45,060 bases of DNA from positions 1 to 45,060 of IMG/VR virus record IMGVR_UViG_3300017909_001370. One strand, written 5' to 3'. The translations under genes were made by a program, and so were the position numbers. Below the pieces are notes generated by a model that was not told the DNA's origin, made no database searches, and saw only the letters and a program-made list of their open reading frames with translations. Shown one piece after another: positions 9,202-27,966 of the stretch. Position 1 is the first letter of the stretch. Each line of letters opens with the position of its first letter. The stretch comes from a virus (lineage: Duplodnaviria; Caudoviricetes).

Positions 9202-9954
9202 TTACAGATAATCAATCACTTGATTCGCGTCAGTGTTAGCGATTAGCTTATCAATAGCCTCTCTTTTTATTTGCGAAACACGCACATTTGCAGTGTTGAC
9301 ACTTATGTTTAATTTATCAGCTATATAGCTAGCCGAGTGTTTATCACAATCTAGTCCGTAAGATAATCTAAGTACTTCATATTCAATATGCGTTAAATGC
9401 TGCTTCATTAAACTTAATAGGTAAGCATTTAGTATTGCTATATTGTATGGTTCAGAATCATCGGGTATTTGATACAATGGGTTTTCCTCCTCATTATTAT
9501 AGTTAGCATCGATAGATGAAAATATAGAATTGAAAAACATTGTAACAATTTTTTCGTCTTTGGGGTTTTTACGTATTTCATTTAGCTTATGCTCTGGTAT
9601 ACGTATATCGCCCCGGTTAATATCAATCGCGCGTCTTATGGCACCTTTAATCCTTTTACTAAAGAAACTTTTTAAAGTTTTTTCAATATCATCGGATTCG
9701 GTTAGCTTATCCCATTCTAATTTGTCTACTGCTAAAGTTAAACCTTTGTTGCCTTCTTGTATTAAATCGTTTATACTTAATACACCTGAAGCTTGATCGC
9801 TGGTAGAAAACTTTCTTGCTAGGTTTTCGACAAGTGGCATAAACTTTACTATTAGTTCATCGCGGGTATATTCATCATAAAATTTATCGTCAGGCATAGA
9901 TCGTTTCAAGTCTTCCTTATACCTTATATAGTTTTGTACATTGTACTTTTTCAT
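9202..9954 (-). CDS. Phage sigma70-family RNA polymerase sigma factor
   Basis: Region 2 (LV..LARKF, DLIQEG..GL..AVDK), IRIP, and region 4 HTH (VL.L.YGL, IA..L.IS, RVSQIK..AI.KL). Confidence 0.9.
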   Translation of the reverse strand: MKKYNVQNYIRYKEDLKRSMPDDKFYDEYTRDELIVKFMPLVENLARKFSTSDQASGVLSINDLIQEGNKGLTLAVDKLEWDKLTESDDIEKTLKSFFSKRIKGAIRRAIDINRGDIRIPEHKLNEIRKNPKDEKIVTMFFNSIFSSIDANYNNEEENPLYQIPDDSEPYNIAILNAYLLSLMKQHLTHIEYEVLRLSYGLDCDKHSASYIADKLNISVNTANVRVSQIKREAIDKLIANTDANQVIDYL

Positions 9955-12652: not shown

Positions 12653-12876
12653 TAACTTACTTTATTATATTGCCATTGGCCAATAATGTGGTTGTTAATA
12701 AACTTACCTTTAGAATTAGCGTTAAACAATCCGTGCCAGTAAAATGCAGGCACTTTATTATATTCGTATACACCGCCGTTTTTATATGTTAATACTAAAC
12801 GCCTAAGTTGTGTGGCATACGTTGCATCTTCAATGCACTCTGAGTCTACTACGACTCTTTCAATTAAATTGCTCAT
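12652..12876 (-). CDS. KTSC domain protein
   Basis: V.S..I....Y, L...Y.NG.VY.Y..VP, A.S.GKF.N..I pattern. Confidence 0.85.
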   Translation of the reverse strand: MSNLIERVVVDSECIEDATYATQLRRLVLTYKNGGVYEYNKVPAFYWHGLFNANSKGKFINNHIIGQWQYNKVS

Positions 12877-12890
12877 AGTTTTAAATTTAT

Positions 12891-12925
12891 TATATTATCG
12901 ATTTTACTTCGTGTTAACTTTGTAA
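12891..12925 (-). promoter_or_regulatory. Early promoter motif copy 1 (TTACA-N8-ACGAA-N7-CGATAATATA)
   Basis: One of nine copies with identical spacing; 14 nt upstream of the ATG. Confidence 0.8.
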
Positions 12926-12929
12926 ATTT

Positions 12930-13544
12930 TTAATGGAATACTAATCCCACTCTGTGGTTTTTACTGAACCACTTTGTCGCCATTAGATCAATGTTAGAAG
13001 CATCCACATAGTTGTTAGATACAAGATCGCTATGACTAGAAAAAATTCTCGTGTGTCTATGTTTCCTTTCATTTATCATATGTTTTTGTTTACCAGAATC
13101 ACTGAATATAATATCGTAATTGCTTGGTAATGAGGTTTTTAGTATTAAATCTACCATATTGGTGTAACTGTAAAACCGAACGCTTGGGTTGTGTATAGCA
13201 ATTTGCATCCACTTTTTTAGATATGCGCCGGAATAGTAATCACCGCTATCATGGACACGCACGTAATCGGGTTTCTTACGCTTAATCTCTGCGTTCATTG
13301 CATCAATAAAATCGTCGGTCTTGGTTAGCTCGTAACGTTTTTCAAACGCCGGTTTTACATTACTCCAAATGTAGGCTCCCTTCTTGGCATAGCAGAACTT
13401 TACGCAAGCATCTGCCATGGGGCACGTCAATTTTCCACTCGCGCTTTTATACGCTGGTATACCGAAGTTAAATACCCTAAGCCCTAATTCTTTACTGGTC
13501 TTTTTTAATTTACTATTCTGTGTCAGAAGATTCATAGTAGTCAA
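12930..13544 (-). CDS. Gp88-like (radical-SAM-related) protein
   Basis: N.KL.K, CPMADACVKFCYA (Cx5Cx3C), R.HDSGD, FYSYT; true start probably MNLLTQ. Confidence 0.7.
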   Translation of the reverse strand: MTTMNLLTQNSKLKKTSKELGLRVFNFGIPAYKSASGKLTCPMADACVKFCYAKKGAYIWSNVKPAFEKRYELTKTDDFIDAMNAEIKRKKPDYVRVHDSGDYYSGAYLKKWMQIAIHNPSVRFYSYTNMVDLILKTSLPSNYDIIFSDSGKQKHMINERKHRHTRIFSSHSDLVSNNYVDASNIDLMATKWFSKNHRVGLVFH

Positions 13545-13722
13545 TTATTTTTTCAATGTCGTCTTCCATATCTACAATCTCCCGTGCGAGGTCTAACACT
13601 CGCTTAAATCCGTGCAGCTCGTAGTTGCTAAATTCATATACGTCACGCTCTTCGATCGCGTAAACGCAGTCTTGCATATCTTTTGCCGTATTTTCAAAGC
13701 GGCAATAACTCATATTTGGCAT
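13513..13722 (-). CDS. Hypothetical early protein (NMSYCRFENT..D..DC)
   Basis: ORF track; operon packing. Confidence 0.7.
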   Translation of the reverse strand: MPNMSYCRFENTAKDMQDCVYAIEERDVYEFSNYELHGFKRVLDLAREIVDMEDDIEKIIDYYESSDTE

Positions 13723-13732
13723 AATTTTAGTA

Positions 13733-14005
13733 TTAGTCTAGCAATACCATATAGGCTTCACTGTTATTTTTTTGAAACCAGCGTAGTGCTTTGTGAAATT
13801 CATTTATTTGTTTTTGTGTTACTGTTTTAGGTGCAACTTCCATTACATACTGGCTACCCATAATAAAATCGTACATTGATAACTCAACACCGTTTAGATC
13901 GTATGTCTCGCCACTGAATGGGTTTGTTACAGTTTCACCTTTTTCGTATATTACACCTTGGAACCATTTAGGCACCGACTGGCTCGTCTTCGTTTTCGTA
14001 CTCAT
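13733..14005 (-). CDS. Hypothetical early protein
   Basis: ORF track; start taken at MSTKTK. Confidence 0.65.
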   Translation of the reverse strand: MSTKTKTSQSVPKWFQGVIYEKGETVTNPFSGETYDLNGVELSMYDFIMGSQYVMEVAPKTVTQKQINEFHKALRWFQKNNSEAYMVLLD

Positions 14006-14435
14006 AACCTTCTTCAATTAGTTTGTTTTCAATTTCTTCTTTTTTGTCGTTATAGTATTCTTCATACACCTCGTCAATTACTTCTTGAAACGAATAGTTT
14101 TCTGCGTCGTCATCATATTCGTCAAAGTATATATTCATACCGTCTGTCATAGCGTCAGGCATTTTTTCTAGCCAGTCATTATCGTAATAGTATACGTCTT
14201 CGTTAATTGAAGGGTTTCGATCGTTATCAGTAGCTATCCAAACTTCGTAACCGTCAGATGTTGTTTCGGTATAAAACATCATATCAGGGTTGCGCCAATC
14301 GGTAGATATTGAAAAATCAAAGTGGTCTTTAATAGTGGCTAGCTTTTCATCGTAGTCTATGTCTTCAGCAGGAATTACTCCGTTTTCTGCTAATTTTTCT
14401 AAGATTAAGTCGTCGGTTAGTATTTTTTTACTCAT
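13968..14435 (-). CDS. Highly acidic hypothetical protein
   Basis: ORF track; very D/E-rich. Confidence 0.7.
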   Translation of the reverse strand: MSKKILTDDLILEKLAENGVIPAEDIDYDEKLATIKDHFDFSISTDWRNPDMMFYTETTSDGYEVWIATDNDRNPSINEDVYYYDNDWLEKMPDAMTDGMNIYFDEYDDDAENYSFQEVIDEVYEEYYNDKKEEIENKLIEEGYEYENEDEPVGA

Positions 14436-14667
14436 CGTCTTTAATTAAAATGTTATCACCCCATCTAAAATCAAACAGTGATACTCTATTAGGGTCTATG
14501 TCAGCAAACATATATAGCGACCTAATGTCGCCTATCGTTAGGTCACTATAAAACTTAGTGCTTTCTAGTGTAAATATAATTTGTTTAACGGAACCAGAAT
14601 ATCTTGGCTCGTTATTTTCAAGCGCTAGCTTTACTTCAGGCTTGAGTCTTTGATATAAATTTTTCAT
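14428..14667 (-). CDS. Hypothetical early protein
   Basis: ORF track; directly downstream of promoter copy 2. Confidence 0.7.
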   Translation of the reverse strand: MKNLYQRLKPEVKLALENNEPRYSGSVKQIIFTLESTKFYSDLTIGDIRSLYMFADIDPNRVSLFDFRWGDNILIKDDE

Positions 14668-14681
14668 TTAATTTAATTTAT

Positions 14682-14716
14682 TATATTATCGATTTGCATT
14701 CGTATTACATTTGTAA
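14682..14716 (-). promoter_or_regulatory. Early promoter motif copy 2
   Basis: Plus strand TATATTATCG ATTTGCA TTCGT ATTACATT TGTAA. Confidence 0.8.
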
Positions 14717-14719
14717 TAG

Positions 14720-14804
14720 TGGACGTGGCAGGAATCGAACCTGCGTTTGCGCGTCAAACATCCTTTCTGCTAAGTGGGAAACACGCTCTAACCATTTCAC
14801 GCCC
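14720..14804 (-). ncRNA. tmRNA-like tRNA-like domain without mRNA domain (mini-tmRNA, Ala identity)
   Basis: Acceptor stem GGGCGUG/CACGUCC with G3.U70 and A73; stemless D-loop AAAUGGUUAGA; T-arm GCAGG-UUCGAUU-CCUGC; no anticodon arm. Confidence 0.75.
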
Positions 14805-14996
14805 ATTTGAGAGGCGGACGGGACTGGAATGTTAGGAATGCACGTCATTTACTAGTATGCCCTGACTTATATCCTTTTCTCTGTTTATCCCGTCTTTCTT
14901 GCTTCATCGAGCCGAATCAAGTTCGCCTTTAATCTGCCTTCCAACCTTAAACCTCTCATTAGTATGTCAAACATCCTTTCTGCTAAGTGGGAAACA
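14753..14996. repeat. Exact 31-bp direct repeat (14753-14783 and 14966-14996)
   Basis: GTCAAACATCCTTTCTGCTAAGTGGGAAACA present twice. Confidence 0.95.
14808..14958 (-). ncRNA. Putative 151-nt structured RNA
   Basis: Closing stem UGAGAGG/CCUCUCA and inner stem GACGGGA/UCCCGUC; GC-richer than its surroundings; flanked by two other structured elements. Confidence 0.45.
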
Positions 14997-15038
14997 TACT
15001 ATTTATGTAGTTAATAGTGTACTTTCGAACTTTGTTAA

Positions 15039-15227
15039 CTACTTGCGCCGCCAAGCTCTGTGCACGGATGCACTTACTTCTTGACTAACGATTTGTATTG
15101 TATTACCGGTTTTATGCTCAATAATTGGTACATAGCTGTACGTTTGGGTTGTTGAGCAATTAACACAGGTTTTGTAGCCCATATCTAATCGCAACCGTGG
15201 TATATTTGTTCCGCATCTACAATACAT
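15039..15227 (-). CDS. DksA/TraR-like C4 zinc-finger protein
   Basis: CRCG..IP..RL......CVNC. Confidence 0.6.
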   Translation of the reverse strand: MYCRCGTNIPRLRLDMGYKTCVNCSTTQTYSYVPIIEHKTGNTIQIVSQEVSASVHRAWRRK

Positions 15228-15250
15228 AATTTTATTTTTTTTGTTACATT

Positions 15251-15285
15251 TATATTATCGATTTACGTTCGTGTTATATCTGTAA
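15251..15285 (-). promoter_or_regulatory. Early promoter motif copy 3
   Basis: TATATTATCG ATTTACG TTCGT GTTATATC TGTAA. Confidence 0.8.
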
Positions 15286-15348
15286 AAGTATTCACGCTCG
15301 ATTGCCTCTATTTGCACTCTAGTGAGTGGTTTGTGGCTAAATTTTCGT

Positions 15349-15534
15349 TTATTTGTTCGTTTCTTCATACATTTTAGCGATTGCGACGCGCATGACGTGG
15401 CTGTGTATAGCATTGTAGTCATCACCGTCTTGTTCAAAATCTGATAGTTGCCAATCGATGCTATCATACATCAATTCCATTGTGACGTCAGCGACACCTT
15501 GTGCGATTTCGTCAAGTTCTTTCATTTTACTCAT
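15349..15534 (-). CDS. Hypothetical early protein
   Basis: ORF track. Confidence 0.65.
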   Translation of the reverse strand: MSKMKELDEIAQGVADVTMELMYDSIDWQLSDFEQDGDDYNAIHSHVMRVAIAKMYEETNK

Positions 15535-15667
15535 AGATATATTCTTCCATTGCGTTAATAAAATCGTCTTTGTCTATAGTTCCTTCTTCATAACAATTTA
15601 AGTTAAACAAGAAGGCTGCATAAAGCCTGTCATCCCTGACTTCCGTTAGTTGTTTATTAGTTGCCAT
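15527..15667 (-). CDS. Hypothetical early protein, 46 aa (MATNKQLTEVRDDRLY...)
   Basis: Manual ORF overlapping both neighbours. Confidence 0.55.
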   Translation of the reverse strand: MATNKQLTEVRDDRLYAAFLFNLNCYEEGTIDKDDFINAMEEYIYE

Positions 15668-15938
15668 ATTCTACCTCACATTCGTTAGTATTCATCCACT
15701 CTACATTATTTAGTTTATGACCCGCGCCGATTATAAAGGACTCAAGGTCGTTTACACCGTTTGGCACTTTATATGAATATACTTTGCCATCAGTGAAGTC
15801 AAGCACCCAAATATAATCTTGGTGTTGAGTTTTGTAAATTTCATACTGGTCTTGTATTTCTTTGTTAAATTGTTCAGCATTTTCAGCAAGTTTACGTTCT
15901 TCTTCCATTTCGTGCCATTTAGTAATTGTATCACTCAT
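15657..15938 (-). CDS. Hypothetical early protein
   Basis: ORF track. Confidence 0.7.
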   Translation of the reverse strand: MSDTITKWHEMEEERKLAENAEQFNKEIQDQYEIYKTQHQDYIWVLDFTDGKVYSYKVPNGVNDLESFIIGAGHKLNNVEWMNTNECEVEYGN

Positions 15939-15940
15939 AG

Positions 15941-16234
15941 TTAATCACCTGTATAGTTGTCACCAGTTGCTTGTTTTTCAGCATAGTATGCCGCGGCGCC
16001 CTCATGGTGTAGTCGGGTAAGCTCTTTGTGATGCTCCGTATTATCGAGGTAGTCATCAATTCGTTTGTGCATTTCATCTTCGGTGATAGTACCAAAGCTT
16101 ATTACATTTACATATTGTAATAATGTTTCGTCGTTGCAATTAAAACCTTTTGCTGGTTTGCCGTTCCACGTCACCCACTCTTGATATGTGTAGGGTGTAT
16201 CTCGGTATGTTATTATATCACCTGATTTATACAT
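15941..16234 (-). CDS. Hypothetical early protein
   Basis: ORF track. Confidence 0.7.
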   Translation of the reverse strand: MYKSGDIITYRDTPYTYQEWVTWNGKPAKGFNCNDETLLQYVNVISFGTITEDEMHKRIDDYLDNTEHHKELTRLHHEGAAAYYAEKQATGDNYTGD

Positions 16235-16240
16235 AGTTAT

Positions 16241-16444
16241 TTATTTTAATAAGTTAAAAAAGTCATCTCTATCTTCTACATAAGTTAAGCCTTTGTAGTT
16301 AAACCATTTATATATACCGTCTTTGTCAGTGTCTTCATTGTATTTGAAGCCGAATGATGGCGGTAGGTTGCCGACTAAATAAGGTTTATATTTAGTGGAG
16401 TTTAATTTAATTTTTTGGTTAGGTAAGAATTTTATAGTATTCAT
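16241..16444 (-). CDS. Hypothetical early protein
   Basis: ORF track; follows promoter copy 4. Confidence 0.7.
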   Translation of the reverse strand: MNTIKFLPNQKIKLNSTKYKPYLVGNLPPSFGFKYNEDTDKDGIYKWFNYKGLTYVEDRDDFFNLLK

Positions 16445-16458
16445 ATTTATTATTTGTA

Positions 16459-16493
16459 TATATTATCGACAATAGTTCGTATTTATTTTGTAA
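16459..16493 (-). promoter_or_regulatory. Early promoter motif copy 4
   Basis: TATATTATCG ACAATAG TTCGT ATTTATTT TGTAA. Confidence 0.8.
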
Positions 16494-16734
16494 AAGTGCC
16501 GTCGTGATACATAGTGTGTATATTATTTGAATACTTTTGCGATTCCCATAATTTCGTATGCGAGAACGATCGACCTTTACTACCGGCTTTTTTCATCGGT
16601 ATTCTTACTCTATTGTATTCTTTATCGGTAAGACCACTGCATAATCCGTCAGATTTGAATTTATTACGGTGTTCTTTAGCTCTCGCTATTCTTGAGTTTT
16701 TAACGTACTCACACGCTTCTTTCATTGTCATCAT
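16483..16734 (-). CDS. Hypothetical basic early protein
   Basis: ORF track; stop codon lies inside promoter copy 4. Confidence 0.6.
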   Translation of the reverse strand: MMTMKEACEYVKNSRIARAKEHRNKFKSDGLCSGLTDKEYNRVRIPMKKAGSKGRSFSHTKLWESQKYSNNIHTMYHDGTFTK

Positions 16735-16868
16735 ACTTTAAATTTACTTGCTACGTGGTATATTTCTTCTTTTTCGTACTGTTCAAGTCCCGGTGTTTGT
16801 TGGGCATACATTCTTAGTACGTAGTGAACAAAGATTGCGTCGGTTTCAGTTAGTTTAATAGTTTTCAT
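16731..16868 (-). CDS. Hypothetical early protein, 45 aa (MKTIKLTETDAIFVHYVLRMY...)
   Basis: Manual ORF after promoter copy 5; ATGA overlap with the next gene. Confidence 0.6.
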   Translation of the reverse strand: MKTIKLTETDAIFVHYVLRMYAQQTPGLEQYEKEEIYHVASKFKV

Positions 16869-16875
16869 ATTCAAA

Positions 16876-16910
16876 TGTATTATCGTTATTAGTTCGTTTT
16901 TATTTTGTAA
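16876..16910 (-). promoter_or_regulatory. Early promoter motif copy 5
   Basis: TGTATTATCG TTATTAG TTCGT TTTTATTT TGTAA. Confidence 0.7.
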
Positions 16911-17230
16911 ATACCATAAGTATTTTCCTTATAAGACTCTAATTGCTTTAGTCTTCGAGTTATAGTATAAGGTATATCCTTTACATTTCGGTTTACCCAG
17001 TCAACTATATATTGAAATCTTTCTTGAGGACACGGTATAAGTATTCTTTCGTACATTTCAAAGTGATTACCTTTAGTATTTGGTGGTACTTTACGCACTC
17101 TATTTATTTGGTATAATCTATCGTGGTTACCGTCTATTCGTACATAGCCAGAAGTATAGGAGTATATAAATCTACCGTCTTTTAGTTGGAATTTTTGAGT
17201 TCCGTTTTTGTTTACGTTTATTAAGTTCAT
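16889..17230 (-). CDS. Hypothetical early protein
   Basis: ORF track. Confidence 0.7.
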   Translation of the reverse strand: MNLINVNKNGTQKFQLKDGRFIYSYTSGYVRIDGNHDRLYQINRVRKVPPNTKGNHFEMYERILIPCPQERFQYIVDWVNRNVKDIPYTITRRLKQLESYKENTYGIYKIKTN

Positions 17231-17231
17231 A

Positions 17232-17417
17232 TTAGTTATATATTTGGTTTAATAAGTCTTCAACTAGCATTTCTTCAGTTTCACCATCTTCAAGGTCACA
17301 ATCTCTATTTACAAAGATTTCAACTTGTTCTTTAATAGTATTAAAGTCATCACCGAGTTTTATACATTCTCTGAATAGGTACAAAGTTTCTTCGTCCCAA
17401 TAAAATCTATTTTCCAT
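17232..17417 (-). CDS. Hypothetical acidic early protein (start MENRFYW)
   Basis: Track ORF trimmed to the ATG. Confidence 0.6.
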   Translation of the reverse strand: MENRFYWDEETLYLFRECIKLGDDFNTIKEQVEIFVNRDCDLEDGETEEMLVEDLLNQIYN

Positions 17418-17418
17418 A

Positions 17419-17556
17419 TTATTTGGTATTAGTAGTTTGATAAAATTCAATTCTTTCTTCAACTTCTTTACGAGTTATTTCACCTTTCATTTGACGTAAA
17501 ATATCATTACTCATATCGATTTGTTTTCCGTTTTGACAAGTGAGTATAAATTGCAT
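17419..17556 (-). CDS. Hypothetical early protein, 45 aa (MQFILTCQNGKQIDMS...)
   Basis: Manual ORF. Confidence 0.6.
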   Translation of the reverse strand: MQFILTCQNGKQIDMSNDILRQMKGEITRKEVEERIEFYQTTNTK

Positions 17557-17567
17557 AGTTAATAATT

Positions 17568-17765
17568 TTAGAGTATAGAGTAATAAATTTCGTCTATATT
17601 ATATTTAGTTTCGTTTAGTTTATTCACTAATAATTCTTGTTCAAATAGTTCAGTGAAATTTTCATTTTCGTCGTCTAAGTTAATAGAGTTGTTAATGTGA
17701 ATTATATCTAATTTTTTGTCGGTGTCTTGACAATATAATTGGACAGAGTAATTATTTGAAGTCAT
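17568..17765 (-). CDS. Hypothetical early protein
   Basis: ORF track; follows promoter copy 6. Confidence 0.6.
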   Translation of the reverse strand: MTSNNYSVQLYCQDTDKKLDIIHINNSINLDDENENFTELFEQELLVNKLNETKYNIDEIYYSIL

Positions 17766-17789
17766 ATTAGTATTTATTTTTTATTCAAT

Positions 17790-17824
17790 TATATTATCGA
17801 TTTCACTTCGTATTTATATTGTAA
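17790..17824 (-). promoter_or_regulatory. Early promoter motif copy 6
   Basis: TATATTATCG ATTTCAC TTCGT ATTTATAT TGTAA. Confidence 0.8.
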
Positions 17825-17912
17825 AAAAGTATATACTTTGTTTGTAGGTAAAAAAGTTATTACAGTTATTATACTATATCTCCAAGTATGAAAAAATAAT
17901 TTATTCAAAAAC

Positions 17913-17960
17913 TGTGACATTAGGTAGTTATATTAAATATAATAAGAAGCTATCGTCGCA
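17913..17960 (+). promoter_or_regulatory. Inverted-repeat element copy 2
   Basis: TGTGACATTAGG-N24-GCTATCGTCGCA. Confidence 0.65.
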
Positions 17961-18091
17961 TACCGAACAATTAAATTAGGTATAGGTGGTTGCTATACAC
18001 ATCAGTTACGATGCATATTGCAGATCTGTTCAACGTTATTTATACTGGTGATGATACACATCTCAACGCGCCAGTTGGCAGAGGAACTAGA

Positions 18092-18406
18092 TTACTTTAC
18101 TTCATCTAGTTCAACTCTTTCGATTACAATATCTCTGACATTAGAAGGCATGTCGGTAGATTGAGACCAGTAGCCTCTTTTAATCCAGCAAGGCATAATG
18201 CTTAGCTTAGGTAACATAACTTTGAGAACTTCATCATGATTGTAAGTAATCTTTTGATTTTTGTTATTGACAAAGGTTATGATTTGATTTCGACCGAGCC
18301 AAGACTTTCGGACAACAAAGTTTTTACGCTCGATTGGTGGAAAGATTTCAGATAGCTCTGCTTTAGACAATTTAGATATTGCGGATTGTAATTTAGAATT
18401 TGACAT
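18092..18406 (-). CDS. Hypothetical early protein
   Basis: ORF track; follows promoter copy 7. Confidence 0.75.
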   Translation of the reverse strand: MSNSKLQSAISKLSKAELSEIFPPIERKNFVVRKSWLGRNQIITFVNNKNQKITYNHDEVLKVMLPKLSIMPCWIKRGYWSQSTDMPSNVRDIVIERVELDEVK

Positions 18407-18430
18407 ATTTATTTAATTATTTATTTCATT

Positions 18431-18465
18431 TATATTATCGTTTACCGTTCGTATAGAGTTTGTAA
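18431..18465 (-). promoter_or_regulatory. Early promoter motif copy 7
   Basis: TATATTATCG TTTACCG TTCGT ATAGAGTT TGTAA. Confidence 0.8.
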
Positions 18466-18466
18466 A

Positions 18467-18601
18467 TTATACTCTAAATGTTGGTTCAGTTATTAGAAGG
18501 AATATTGAGTATAAGATTCCAGCGATTGCTAGAGTGCCAATTCCAGCTACAGTTACATTCGTGATGAAGGCGATTACTTTGTGGGTAAATTTTCTGTTCA
18601 T
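18467..18601 (-). CDS. 44-aa single-pass membrane peptide
   Basis: Manual ORF MNRKFTHKVIAFITNVTVAGIGTLAIAGILYSIFLLITEPTFRV, between promoter copies 8 and 7. Confidence 0.65.
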   Translation of the reverse strand: MNRKFTHKVIAFITNVTVAGIGTLAIAGILYSIFLLITEPTFRV

Positions 18602-18620
18602 GATTATTATTTTATTCGTT

Positions 18621-18655
18621 TATATTATCGTTTAAGGTTCGTATTAGTTTTGTGA
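18621..18655 (-). promoter_or_regulatory. Early promoter motif copy 8
   Basis: TATATTATCG TTTAAGG TTCGT ATTAGTTT TGTGA. Confidence 0.8.
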
Positions 18656-18656
18656 G

Positions 18657-18797
18657 TTAGCTACGGTACTCTTCTTCGCGTAGCCGCTCAAGGTCATTGA
18701 TCTCGCGCATAGTTGATCGGTACTGGACCCAGTAGCCACAGTCTTCAAACCAGTCTGCTTTGCGATACAAATCCTGAAGTTTAGTAGTAATGTTCAT
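18657..18797 (-). CDS. Hypothetical early protein, 46 aa (MNITTKLQDLYRKADWFEDCGYW...)
   Basis: Manual ORF between promoter copies 9 and 8. Confidence 0.65.
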   Translation of the reverse strand: MNITTKLQDLYRKADWFEDCGYWVQYRSTMREINDLERLREEEYRS

Positions 18798-18821
18798 AAG
18801 ACTATTATTATTTTATTCACT

Positions 18822-18856
18822 TATATTATCGAAATAACATCGTACTAATACTGTAA
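18822..18856 (-). promoter_or_regulatory. Early promoter motif copy 9
   Basis: TATATTATCG AAATAAC ATCGT ACTAATAC TGTAA. Confidence 0.75.
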
Positions 18857-18857
18857 A

Positions 18858-22256: not shown

Positions 22257-24024
22257 AATACCTACTTATCAAAAAGACGCCAATATATCTGATAATGATT
22301 TTATATTAGGATCAGACGGTGATAACAATGAGCTTGCGACTAAAAATTTTTATTTAGGTGCTATAGCTGAGTTTACTATTGACAAGCTTATTGACCCTGA
22401 CGCTACGCAGGCATATATACCTGTATTTAGAAACACCCTTAATACACAGGGAGCAAACGCAACAAGAATAACTAATTCTATAATGACCCAGGACACATAT
22501 CCAACGGGTACAAAAATATCAATAACAGGGGATTTATATGTGTCTAACAACGGCGAAATAGATGATGATCTTGTGATCGGCAACGATTTATCGGTTGGTG
22601 GCGACGGAACTATAACAAGCAATTTAGCAGTACAAGGCCAAATAGAAGGCGGAACATTAGATATTTATGAATTTGGAAGCATAGGTACTGATCTTTCTAT
22701 AGGTAACAATTTAACTGTACAGGGTAAAACAACAACAAATACGCTTCAGGTTGACAGTACAGCTTTTATAGGTGGTGTGTTAACAATGGAAGATAATATT
22801 AGTATGACACGAAATGGTCGTATTACAGATCTTGAAGATCCCATTGACGCACAAGACGCGGCAACTAAAGCTTATGTTGATGCTTCTGGTGTAAATGGAA
22901 CCGGCACAACTAATACACTTCCATTATGGTCAGATGGGCCGGCGAGCGTTTTAGGTGATTCTATTGTATCTCAATCCGGATCAGTAATAACTGCATTAGG
23001 CGCAGTAAAAATAGGTGCAGGTCATACAGCAATTGGTAATTATAATTTAACTTCAGGTGAAAACAATAGTGTTTCAGGTAATCTTTCTGTAGCTTTTGGT
23101 TTTAACAATACTGTAACAGGAAATAGAGCTGGTGGATTAGGCGCAAATAACACTGTTGCAGGTGGTCAAGTTTGGGCAACAGGTGATGGGAACGATGTAG
23201 GTCTTAACGTTTTAAACGTAGGTGGAAATATCATTACTGCTGGTTTTGACAATACTGTTAAGTCAGGCAACTCTTGTGTAATAGGATCTAATAATGATTT
23301 AACTAATACGTCGGGACTTCAATCTGTAAAAACAAACTTTGCTTTAGGCTCTGCAAATACTATAAACGATGTATCTGACGGAATAGCTATTGGTTTTAAT
23401 AATACTATAAACAATAGTGAAAGTTGCACCTTAGGTGAAAGTAATACTACAAACGCAAGTGATACTTATGCTGTAGGTAAAAATAATGAGCTTGGAAGTA
23501 AAGATGATTACGTTTTTGGACTTAATAATACAATTGGTGGTAGTGCAGTTAATTCAACAATTGTTGGTGATAGCAATACTATAAGTGGACCTAACTCCTA
23601 TGCTATAGGTGAAAGTAATAGCCTTAGCAGTCAAAAAGATTATGCTTTTGGATTTAACAATACAATTGGAGGAAGTGCAAACTTAGCGATGGCTCTTGGT
23701 CAAAATAACAATTTAACAGGTAGTCAATCTTATGCTTTTGGTAGAAACCTGCAAGATGGAGGTGAAGATAATACTATTATAATTGGGCGTTATAATGTAA
23801 CACCTACTGCTACCGGTAGAATTGTGTTTGGTACTGGATTTTCTGATACCGGCAGAAGAAATTCAATAGAAATACAAGCAGGTAATAACACACAATCTGG
23901 TTTACTTTTTAAAGCTCTTCAAGCTTCAAATAGTTACGCAGATGACGCAGCGGCTGCAGCTGGAGGGGTAGAGCTTGGGGAATTGTATAGAAATGGAAAT
24001 GTAGTACATATTAGAATTACATAA
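22249..24024 (+). CDS. Tail fibre/adhesin with YadA-head-like 14-residue G..N repeats
   Basis: Repeated S.A.G..N.. units; DP...QDAATK.YVD motif. Confidence 0.8.
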   Translation: MARIPTYQKDANISDNDFILGSDGDNNELATKNFYLGAIAEFTIDKLIDPDATQAYIPVFRNTLNTQGANATRITNSIMTQDTYPTGTKISITGDLYVSNNGEIDDDLVIGNDLSVGGDGTITSNLAVQGQIEGGTLDIYEFGSIGTDLSIGNNLTVQGKTTTNTLQVDSTAFIGGVLTMEDNISMTRNGRITDLEDPIDAQDAATKAYVDASGVNGTGTTNTLPLWSDGPASVLGDSIVSQSGSVITALGAVKIGAGHTAIGNYNLTSGENNSVSGNLSVAFGFNNTVTGNRAGGLGANNTVAGGQVWATGDGNDVGLNVLNVGGNIITAGFDNTVKSGNSCVIGSNNDLTNTSGLQSVKTNFALGSANTINDVSDGIAIGFNNTINNSESCTLGESNTTNASDTYAVGKNNELGSKDDYVFGLNNTIGGSAVNSTIVGDSNTISGPNSYAIGESNSLSSQKDYAFGFNNTIGGSANLAMALGQNNNLTGSQSYAFGRNLQDGGEDNTIIIGRYNVTPTATGRIVFGTGFSDTGRRNSIEIQAGNNTQSGLLFKALQASNSYADDAAAAAGGVELGELYRNGNVVHIRIT

Positions 24025-26277: not shown

Positions 26278-27966
26278 ATGTCTACTAGGTTTTTAAACAA
26301 TATAAATATAAACGATAGCTATACCCTGCCGGCAGCAGACGGTACGGCTGATCAGGTAATTTCAACCGATGGAGCGGGACAGCTTAGTTTTATAGATCAG
26401 ACTACGCTGTCCGCAGAATCGGCGGAAGTGGTGAAAGTGCCGGTTAAAAACTTGCAAGGCTCAGCGTTAACGAAGGGTGACCCCGTGTATATTTCCGGTT
26501 CTGTCGGAACATCTGGTAGATTAGAAGTTAAATTAGCGGACGCGGGAGATACTACAAAAATGCCTGCCTTAGGTTTGTTACAGCAAGATTTAGTAATTAA
26601 CGGGGAGGGTTATGTAGTTGTAACAGGTAAATTAAGAAACCTAGTTACATCTCCTATTGATGGCGCAACACCGTCTGAAGGCGACGTTGTTTACGTTAAA
26701 TCAGGTGGCACCACAGGAGCCGCTCTCACGACTACCAAACCGGTTGGTGTCAATCTTATACAAAACATGGGTAAGGTCGGTAGAGTAAGCACTGCTAATG
26801 ATGGGACGTTTGTTGTTTCTTCTATATTAAGATCAAATGATGTGCCAACTCCATTATATATAGACCATGCTAATCAAAGACTTGGGATTGGGACGGCTAA
26901 CCCTAATTTTGCACTAGATGTAAACGGGACAATTAGAACGACAGGCAGTTTACTAGTAGGCCCCCCCAATAATACTATTACTGGCTTTAACGGTTTAACT
27001 TCAGGTGAAAACAATAATATCTCAGGGGAACTTTCTGTAGCTTTTGGTTTTAACAATATTGTAACAGGAAATAGATGTGGAGGATTAGGTGCAAATAACA
27101 TTGTTGCTGGTGGCCAAGTTTGGGCAACAGGTGATGGAAACGATGTAGGTATTGACAAGTTAAACGTAGGTGGTAATATTGTTACAGCAGGTTTTAACAA
27201 CACTGTTAAGTCAGGTAACTCTTGCGTAGTGGGATCTGGCAATAATTTAACCAACACACAAGAACTGCAGACAAGAAGTACAAATTTTGTTTTAGGGTCT
27301 AAAAACGATATAAACGATGGAGCAAGAGTATTTATGCTTGGAAGTAGCAACACGTCCTCAACAGGTTCTAATGATGTTGTTATAGTAGGAAGAAGCAATA
27401 CAGCGTCAAACGGTAGGGCTTATGCTTTTGGGGACACGAACGTGGCTGCTGCATTTAGAGCATTCGCTATAGGTGCCGCAAATACAACTGCCTCGCAGAG
27501 TAGTCTTTTGATAGGTGCAAACAACGCATCAGGCGGGGGTAGAAATCAGTATGTGTTAGGTAGGAATAATAACATTATAGACAACCCATCCAACCCTGGC
27601 ATATTTCCATCAAACGTAGTTTTAGCTGGGGTCGGCAATAATACTGGTTATAATAATTCGTACCATTTTGGCAGAGGGATGAGTTCAGGTACTAACACCC
27701 AAGTACTAATAGGACATTTTGCAGAAACATCAACTAAAAGTGCAAGCTATGTAGGTATAGGTGTTGGAAGTAGCGGCGCTAATCGGCTTACGGCCATGTC
27801 TTTTAAAAGATCATCTGGAACAGCAAGTACCGCTGACGCCCAAATTTTTGCAGAGGCATTATACAACGCTGCATCCTATGCTGATGATGCAGCTGCGGCG
27901 GCTGGGGGCGTTGAATTGGGACAATTATATAGAGCTGGAAGTACAGTTAAAATAAGAATGACATAA
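26278..27966 (+). CDS. Tail fibre/adhesin with YadA-head-like repeats, paralogous to 22249..24024
   Basis: LPAADG..QV..TDG.G.LSF, RLGIGT.NP...LDVNG and G..N repeats; shared C-terminal YADDAAAAAGGVELG.LYR. Confidence 0.8.
   Translation: MSTRFLNNININDSYTLPAADGTADQVISTDGAGQLSFIDQTTLSAESAEVVKVPVKNLQGSALTKGDPVYISGSVGTSGRLEVKLADAGDTTKMPALGLLQQDLVINGEGYVVVTGKLRNLVTSPIDGATPSEGDVVYVKSGGTTGAALTTTKPVGVNLIQNMGKVGRVSTANDGTFVVSSILRSNDVPTPLYIDHANQRLGIGTANPNFALDVNGTIRTTGSLLVGPPNNTITGFNGLTSGENNNISGELSVAFGFNNIVTGNRCGGLGANNIVAGGQVWATGDGNDVGIDKLNVGGNIVTAGFNNTVKSGNSCVVGSGNNLTNTQELQTRSTNFVLGSKNDINDGARVFMLGSSNTSSTGSNDVVIVGRSNTASNGRAYAFGDTNVAAAFRAFAIGAANTTASQSSLLIGANNASGGGRNQYVLGRNNNIIDNPSNPGIFPSNVVLAGVGNNTGYNNSYHFGRGMSSGTNTQVLIGHFAETSTKSASYVGIGVGSSGANRLTAMSFKRSSGTASTADAQIFAEALYNAASYADDAAAAAGGVELGQLYRAGSTVKIRMT

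Follow-up and report, generated by a model that had tools for sequence, protein, structure and literature searches.

By its sequence and predicted fold, the 85-nt element on the minus strand at positions 14720 to 14804 of IMGVR_UViG_3300017909_001370 is the tRNA-like domain (TLD) of a tmRNA, of alanine type and without a tag frame; comparison with related loci indicates that its loop is an exchangeable module and not a shrunken mRNA domain. The window analyzed here is the whole 45,060-nt stretch of this virus record (70% complete). The TLD-only scaffold itself is already known from mycobacteriophage DS6A, mitochondria, and plastids, which corrects a sequence-only reading that had treated the form as unprecedented. 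The novelty lies in the swappable, nested cargo, an RNA modularity not found in the literature that we searched.

Anatomy and class of the 85-nt element

The predicted parts of the element are listed below, with the evidence for each in parentheses.

14720..14804 (-), TLD-only (tag-less) tmRNA gene, 85 nt to discriminator A73 (Rfam RF00023, fold, and 91 related loci)
14798..14804 (-), acceptor stem 5' strand, with G3 at 14802 (sequence; G3 in 82/83 distinct RNAs)
14788..14797 (-), stemless D-loop with GG and a G19 equivalent 3 nt after GG (alignment; published SmpB contacts)
14749..14786 (-), helix H2 equivalent plus cargo module M1, with a 26-nt core at 14755-14780 (fold and repeats)
14745..14748 (-), T-arm linker with the A334 equivalent (A in 83/83 distinct RNAs)
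14720..14744 (-), T-arm, acceptor 3' strand with U70, and discriminator A73 (sequence, Rfam, and fold)
14717..14719 (-), CTA tail where CCA would stand (normal tRNA/tmRNA gene end in the clade)

The sequence, coordinates, and pairing agree with what the sequence-only reading had proposed for an alanine-identity TLD. The acceptor stem joins 14804-14798 to 14727-14721 (7 bp) and includes G3·U70, with A73 at 14720. The inner helix (14786-14781/14754-14749; 6 bp) gains a U·G pair to reach 7 bp around a 24-nt loop in the centroid structure and is followed by an AAAC linker, a 5-bp T-arm with a UUCGAUU loop, and CTA. This helix had been regarded as a replacement for the anticodon arm; the helix is present, but it corresponds to tmRNA H2, which mimics a long variable arm, while SmpB substitutes for the anticodon arm, as described in a part of PMC3968760.

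Infernal and ARAGORN had been suggested as checks, with divergent outcomes. Rfam model RF00023 matched both ends of the element (35.1 bits; E, 1.6e-11), below its gathering score of 47 bits, while ARAGORN made no call. This was the sole Rfam match at an E value of ≤1 in the whole window, and the tmRNA model outscored the rest of its Rfam clan on the element. In the alignment, 326 model positions are represented by 41 nt, and the standard mRNA-like domain with its tag frame and pseudoknots is absent, in keeping with the earlier description of an 85-nt RNA without a tag frame. The fold z score was -2.12, with 4 of 200 shuffles as stable. The element shares the features of the DS6A type: it is a one-piece TLD with both ends, its H2 is closed without an mRNA domain, and its length lies within 65 to 100 nt. 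Two other classes were considered and rejected. For tRNA-Ala (RF00005), position 8 is A and not U, the D-stem and the 7-nt anticodon loop are missing, and ARAGORN gave 0 calls; for permuted two-piece tmRNA (RF04321), the RNA is a single piece in standard order and the only tmRNA-like match in the window.

The CUA noted earlier in place of CCA is confirmed as the tail, though not as a defect. CTA is the clade's convention for the ends of tRNA and tmRNA genes: it follows A73 in 84 of 93 family records, and among the distinct ordinary tRNA genes near family loci (n = 37), 33 end in CTA, 4 in CAA, and 0 in CCA. CTA is likewise the end of the DS6A TLD and of the tmRNAs of Calle_1 (full) and Panino (permuted). 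Host enzymes would trim the 3' end and then add CCA.

Besides this element, the window encodes GroEL, terminase, portal, and sigma-like proteins (the last, sigma-70-like, at 9202-9954), and a 300-nt repeat, 83% identical between 23046-23345 and 26994-27293, is common to two tail-fibre-like ORFs. Its terminase matched 87 phage records, 86 of which were Flavobacterium, Cellulophaga, Tenacibaculum, or Maribacter phages (<60% identity), and we therefore infer a marine member of the Flavobacteriia as the probable host. Neither smpB nor a tyrosine integrase was found in the record (70% complete). BLASTN among 50,697 phage records gave no close cultured homologue of the locus, and an exact search with the 20-nt loop sequence gave 0 matches in a viral contig set that may lack near-identical genomes. 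A 64-nt promoter-like repeat occurs in nine copies at 12863-18857, heading small minus-strand ORFs. A scan for sigma-70 promoters and terminators returned signals at chance level. The position of the TLD behind one copy of the repeat suggests that it belongs to an early transcription unit.

Conservation and spread of the scaffold

Searching for the 3'-end pattern gave 91 viral loci (labeled L plus a number; loci of different scans overlap), which together with the window's RNA represent 85 distinct RNAs; dropping L200 (5' end misparsed) and L146 (tRNA-like) left 83. The scaffold stays the same throughout these 91 loci and the insert varies, with RNA lengths of 68 to 185 nt (one misparsed row excluded). 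The search for homologues and covariation that had been proposed earlier supports the structure: 78 of 83 RNAs have a closing helix H2 of at least 4 bp, a number that averaged 31.3 and never exceeded 42 when the partners were shuffled 500 times, and there are 36 different H2 stems. G3 is kept in 82 of the 83, and the linker A (A334 equivalent), a position outside the search pattern, is invariant (83/83).

In Escherichia coli, SmpB contacts A15, U17, A334, C18, and G19 of tmRNA, with A334 in the Trp122 pocket (PMC8363625, in part). A G stands 2 to 4 nt after the D-loop GG in 79 of the 83 RNAs, and the spacing is 3 nt in 52, including the window's RNA, versus 4 nt in the four bacterial tmRNAs checked. 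With this shorter D-loop spacing, binding of SmpB is plausible, not assured; the difference could weaken it.

Since the 3'-end pattern itself fixes the 3' side, a separate protein-anchored sample was drawn from the best 80 of 381 relatives of the zinc-finger ORF described below, a sample biased to close kin and overlapping the pattern loci. Of 69 such loci with at least 900 nt downstream, 54 had an alanine-type TLD, nearly always single, and 15 had none within the fetched flank. The 56 TLDs obtained fall into five acceptor-stem versions whose inner pairs change on both sides while G3·U70 and A73 are kept, with the exceptions of one A3-U70, one U73, and two derived downstream copies. The GGGGGTG acceptor occurs in 12 of the 56, and 11 of these 12 are a near-fixed 77- to 79-nt DS6A-like form. 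According to the sequence-only reading, relatives revealing a decayed tmRNA or tRNA without conserved structure would speak against its proposal; the relatives instead conserve the scaffold, G3·U70, A73, the A334 equivalent, and the closing helix.

Other RNAs were seen alongside these. Minimal tRNA-like RNAs of 41 to 42 nt (L372, L380, L384, L387, and L412), located ~1.8 to 2.4 kb from the zinc-finger ORF, consist of an acceptor stem, a D-loop-like GG linker, and a T-arm with a CTA end and no insert. Family TLDs also lie inside bacterial MAGs of unrelated taxa (L238, L240, L259, L274, L275, L309, and L311); the simplest account of these (several in one Aliivibrio bin) is misbinning of phage contigs.

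Beyond this clade, a looser pattern applied to 1/64 of IMG/VR gave 121 loci (L001 to L121; ~9,600 stretches estimated in all), comprising 60 tRNAs, 34 loci without structure, and 27 without U8. When 20 of the 27 U8-less candidates were run on Rfam, 16 matched tmRNA at both ends over 75 to 94 nt, 7 of them above threshold. Most of the matched TLD-only RNAs, from unrelated phages, have a DS6A-like helix, internal loop, and small hairpin. By rough extrapolation from the 1/64 sample, TLD-only loci in unrelated phages may amount to ~1,300 stored stretches. In the 2025 tmRNA database, 9 of 97,179 sequences are classed as "standard, no CDS," with one phage example in the portion of its description consulted (PMC11915505). 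The single phage clade studied here adds >80 distinct TLD-only RNAs, and our data suggest ~1,000 TLD-only phage loci, missed by ARAGORN and often by Rfam thresholds. If this is true, interference with or borrowing of trans-translation would be a common phage strategy.

Cargo modules and the flanking array

The window holds two copies of module M1: 31 nt at 14753-14783, within the TLD, are identical to 14966-14996, located 213 nt upstream, and there were 0 such matches in 100 shuffles. The features around the TLD are as follows.

15223..15286 (-), promoter-like repeat (one of nine) ahead of ORF, array, and TLD (promoter role putative)
15039..15227 (-), 62-aa C4 zinc-finger ORF, preceding array and TLD in most relatives
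15008..15043 (-), array hairpin M0, whose inner 24 nt equal the TLD insert of another phage (L134)
14960..15001 (-), second M1 copy, matching the TLD copy over 31 identical nt and enclosed by another stem (9 bp)
14809..14957 (-), multibranch array element with an outer GAGAGG/CCUCUC helix, containing M2 (fold and relatives)
14904..14934 (-), array module M2, whose 31 nt another phage (L129/L222) carries unchanged as its TLD insert
14654..14717 (-), next promoter-like repeat copy, beginning at the TLD tail

The multibranch element includes a long hairpin (14817-14894) common to relatives. The zinc-finger ORF, with its 381 relatives in viral contigs, usually lies directly upstream of array and TLD. 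It has a DksA/TraR-like N-terminal motif (atlas lead, 0.88; tblastn, "DnaK suppressor," E of 9e-3) but no Pfam or PDB confirmation, and a DksA/TraR-type protein is thus a weak lead.

Different phages of the family carry unrelated TLD inserts. Stretches of ≥14 nt from 33 of 80 distinct inserts recur in the noncoding DNA flanking family TLDs (reverse-complement control, 0). At 20 nt, 30 of 92 inserts match another locus upstream and 14 of 92 do so downstream. Three hairpin modules of the window's 234-nt array serve as TLD inserts, namely, M0 in L134, M2 in L129, and M1 in the window itself. Modules are two-sided and nestable: the halves of M1 enclose 3 nt in the window and a two-hairpin insert in L122, L123, L126, L127, and L208, and those of M2 enclose at least five different inserts. 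M1 stands inside the TLD in four contigs (the window, L449, L451, and L208 [=L475]) and in the arrays of other phages, and an expanded M1 occurs alone before a terminator-like GC hairpin and U-run in L466 and L472, with no TLD in the 1.4-kb locus. Its core is constant and two pairs of its stem vary in both partners, with 96.9% of cells paired, a count that rests on 4 distinct rows and was as high in 24 of 500 shuffles. One module appears in four carriers (L409, L410, L411, and L440), three being alanine-type scaffolds and one an unrelated tRNA-like carrier. Where the loop had been taken for a fixed remnant, it belongs to a set of dozens of nestable modules that move between sites and are also found beyond the TLD; the suggestion of a scaffold presenting the loop gains support because modules swap between carriers. 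Among the long inserts of the family, there is no credible tag frame, a "tag-like" string in L179 being a chance regular-expression match.

A module duplicated within its own locus was found only in the window (1 of 92 loci), and L451 has two M1 versions. Given that the window's upstream M1 is found in L450 and L452 and its TLD-borne M1 in L449 and L451, the window's pair most simply would have arisen by recombination between relatives, and the M1 versions in L449 to L452 make an assembly artefact unlikely.

Some carriers depart from the alanine type. L388 and L434 have derived TLD copies, ~1.7 to 2.0 kb downstream of the zinc-finger ORF, which lack G3·U70 and A73, keep the D-loop, and carry modules. 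A second family of tRNA-like carriers in the array (L375, L393, L396, L400, L402, L427, L438, and L440) has another acceptor stem, keeps the T-arm, and has varying inserts, with one module common to alanine-type TLDs.

We also compared the modules with known RNAs. Rfam had no family for the modules in 20 family loci at an E value of ≤2. Mimicry of rRNA fragments, considered because of apparent resemblances, was rejected, with no excess of shared k-mers with E. coli 16S or 23S rRNA; four Bacteroidota 23S rRNAs (one locus offset) likewise had no excess of k-mers in common with the inserts. The same held for five 16S rRNAs, five RNase P RNAs, four SRP RNAs, and three tmRNAs, in a test in which three loci were unoriented and the shuffled null was inflated for redundant references. 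In oriented exact matching to structural RNAs, 11 inserts had sense matches of at least 11 nt, versus 5 to 19 in shuffles. The references in these comparisons, which concern sequence identity and not shape, came from E. coli and Bacteroidota and may not include the true host. Mimicry of CRISPR repeats was also rejected: 80 inserts and 24 Bacteroidota 36-nt repeats, which may not be those of the phage host, gave 5 duplexes of at least 14 bp, versus a shuffled mean of 4.6, and the modules showed no excess identity with the same 24 repeats. The 3' half of M1 pairs over 15 nt with one 36-nt repeat, such duplexes occurring at the chance rate. A search for ToxN (type III antitoxin mimicry) found 0 in 401 genomes, with the search control likewise silent.

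RNA-library contigs of relatives (3 of 4 studies) cover 14805-14959 and further module variants, as well as other genes. None spans the TLD insert, and the contigs show no strand, ends, or level.

Possible functions and comparison with known systems

We put at about even the chances that a stable, tag-less TLD decoy ties up host SmpB while the module on H2 is displayed to a second host partner. The zinc-finger ORF, array, and TLD would be cotranscribed early from a phage promoter, and host RNase P and 3' maturation with CCA addition would release the TLD, as for tmRNA (PMC3968760, in part). The TLD would then be alanylated and may bind SmpB. Lacking a tag, it would lower tagging by the host, as reported for DS6A-type RNA, and fewer phage products of stalled ribosomes would be degraded. 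H2 is directed away from SmpB and the ribosome core in the structural account consulted (PMC8363625), and an outward H2 could present a module to a further host factor. In this reading, relatives that infect the same cell would exchange modules by recombination, and every module would be a protein-binding decoy that works regardless of its context.

The SmpB decoy is supported by published work on DS6A, listed as "TLD only": a molecule of this kind, whether or not it can be charged, is a strong inhibitor of tmRNA, an effect observed in E. coli and perhaps due to SmpB titration, according to the relevant passages of PMC4131195 and PMC11915505. The conservation of the scaffold, G3·U70/A73, the A334 equivalent, and the closing helix also argues for the decoy. 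Since the cited inhibition was independent of alanylation, a pure decoy leaves the retention of G3·U70/A73 unexplained. Full or permuted tmRNAs in cultured relatives indicate rescue, not inhibition, as the ancestral use, and the decoy reading is further weakened because the searches run found no module target and because 15 of 69 relatives are without an alanine-type TLD.

The cargo admits a broader and more tentative interpretation. Possibly, though we would not bet on it, the system is a natural tRNA-scaffold display of dozens of nestable, aptamer-like modules, each acting as decoy for a different RNA-binding protein of host defence or quality control; with similar reserve, we suggest that the modules are shuffled by recombination among the tmRNA-derived carrier, other tRNA-like carriers, and the hairpin array. 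If the display reading is true, the locus is an anti-defence hotspot built of RNA and not of protein genes. The natural module variants could be used to find the host proteins targeted by phage RNAs, and the TLD offers a compact natural scaffold for RNA display.

The retention of G3·U70/A73 across five acceptor versions fits tag-less rescue, in which an alanylated TLD, with host SmpB and EF-Tu, would accept the nascent chain on stalled ribosomes and the cargo would be passive; we consider this unlikely, and equally so its corollary, proposed for the CDS-less tmRNAs of mitochondria, that alanine is added but no degradation tag. Peptidyl transfer of TLD-only RNA in vitro (PMC3895274, in part), the co-occurrence of mitochondrial tag-less tmRNA with SmpB (PMC11915505, in part), and the full or permuted tmRNA of the relatives Calle_1 and Panino speak for rescue. 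However, the RNA supplies no stop codon, and release would need another pathway; the sole in vivo test of a TLD-only form in the sources cited shows inhibition; and inserts of unrelated structure are tolerated up to 140 nt.

Alternatively, the TLD may be a carrier only, a natural tRNA scaffold for processing and stability with functional cargo and incidental SmpB binding, a view to which we assign a low probability; it is likewise doubtful that the cargo gains protection from cleavage of the array transcript by RNase P and 3' maturation. The same modules do occur in non-alanine tRNA-like carriers (L388, L434, L440, and L400), M1 stands alone before a terminator-like hairpin, and there are the 41- to 42-nt minis of acceptor, D-loop, and T-arm as well as the shortened D-loop. 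Nevertheless, 12 of 56 TLDs at the site are near-fixed 77- to 79-nt DS6A-like RNAs or close to that form, the TLD is retained at many loci without an array, and alanine identity and the A334 equivalent are conserved.

Fast module turnover among close relatives would fit an arms race, and overlapping with the SmpB decoy is the idea that defence nucleases acting on tmRNA or tRNA, e.g., an SmpB-like OB-fold CoCoNuT, are offered this RNA as a decoy or substitute substrate, which we hold to be decidedly unlikely. CoCoNuTs are predicted to have SmpB-like domains, with tmRNA as a predicted target (PMC10542128, in part). The modules are quite improbable as decoys for other RNA-directed defences, and there was no excess of CRISPR-repeat matches among the 24 Bacteroidota repeats.

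It is scarcely credible that the element is neutral (left over from a decayed tmRNA), an att site, or an artefact of assembly. In favor of this view, the score is under the Rfam gathering threshold, an exact 31-nt repeat can mislead assemblers, and own-genome duplication was seen in 1 of 92 loci. Covariation largely refutes it, with both ends intact and stems compensated; in addition, independent contigs have M1 within TLDs on other paired stems, L451 has two M1 versions, and the record (70% complete) shows no tyrosine integrase.

Turning back to the proposed SmpB decoy with displayed cargo, its closest counterpart is DS6A, whose TLD (JN698994, 28478-28560) scores 43.2 bits with the Rfam tmRNA model and is likewise sub-threshold. 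The primary work on the DS6A-type TLD-only tmRNA is Mao et al. (2009), as cited in PMC4131195 and PMC11915505. Both RNAs are one-piece TLDs of ~80 nt with G3·U70/A73, a stemless D-loop, H2 with a short insert, a T-arm, and CTA, and a DS6A-like 77- to 79-nt form occupies the window's site in the relatives L124, L369, and L374. They differ in that the DS6A-type insert is a short internal loop and small hairpin, whereas that of the window clade is a hypervariable, nested, array-shared module, and the D-loop of the window clade is one nucleotide shorter.

Related to the window by terminase, Cellulophaga phage Calle_1 has a full tmRNA (362 nt; 86.6 bits) and Maribacter phage Panino a permuted one. 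These share the phage group, an alanine-type TLD, and the CTA end with the window RNA, but Calle_1 keeps ~280 nt of internal sequence and Panino is permuted, whereas the window RNA has 40 nt of unrelated cargo. The Rfam matches (L496, 1171-1532; L497, 1487-1695) differ in coordinates from the GenBank tmRNAs (Calle_1, 1223-1582; Panino, 1454-1786). No TLD was found in the examined halves of MW202828 and NC_055854.

Phage RNA anti-CRISPRs and pseudo-ToxI repeats are small noncoding RNAs proposed to occupy host defence proteins. Such decoys copy a host repeat, whereas the window's modules show no excess CRISPR-repeat match and are not tandem repeats.

The CDS-less tmRNAs of jakobid and oomycete mitochondria (RF02544) and of Mallomonadaceae plastids (~65 nt) also consist of a tRNA-like domain without a tag frame (PMC11915505). 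As far as that source was consulted, they are housekeeping RNAs, mostly permuted, with nucleus-encoded SmpB and no cargo described, while the window's RNA is a phage accessory gene.

In the full-text literature searched, which holds few subscription journals, exchangeable nested cargo on an array and tRNA-like carriers was absent. The parts consulted of a survey of 10,006 viral candidate RNAs (PMC10690425) made no mention of exchangeable cargo, and four contig identifiers and two motif spellings were absent from six of its supplementary files; three others may hold modules. The engineered tRNA scaffold for RNA aptamers (PMC3753655, in part) is similar in providing a processed, stable frame with a structured RNA on an inner arm. 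That scaffold is a laboratory tool, whereas the window clade appears to hold a natural, recombining repertoire on a tmRNA-derived frame.
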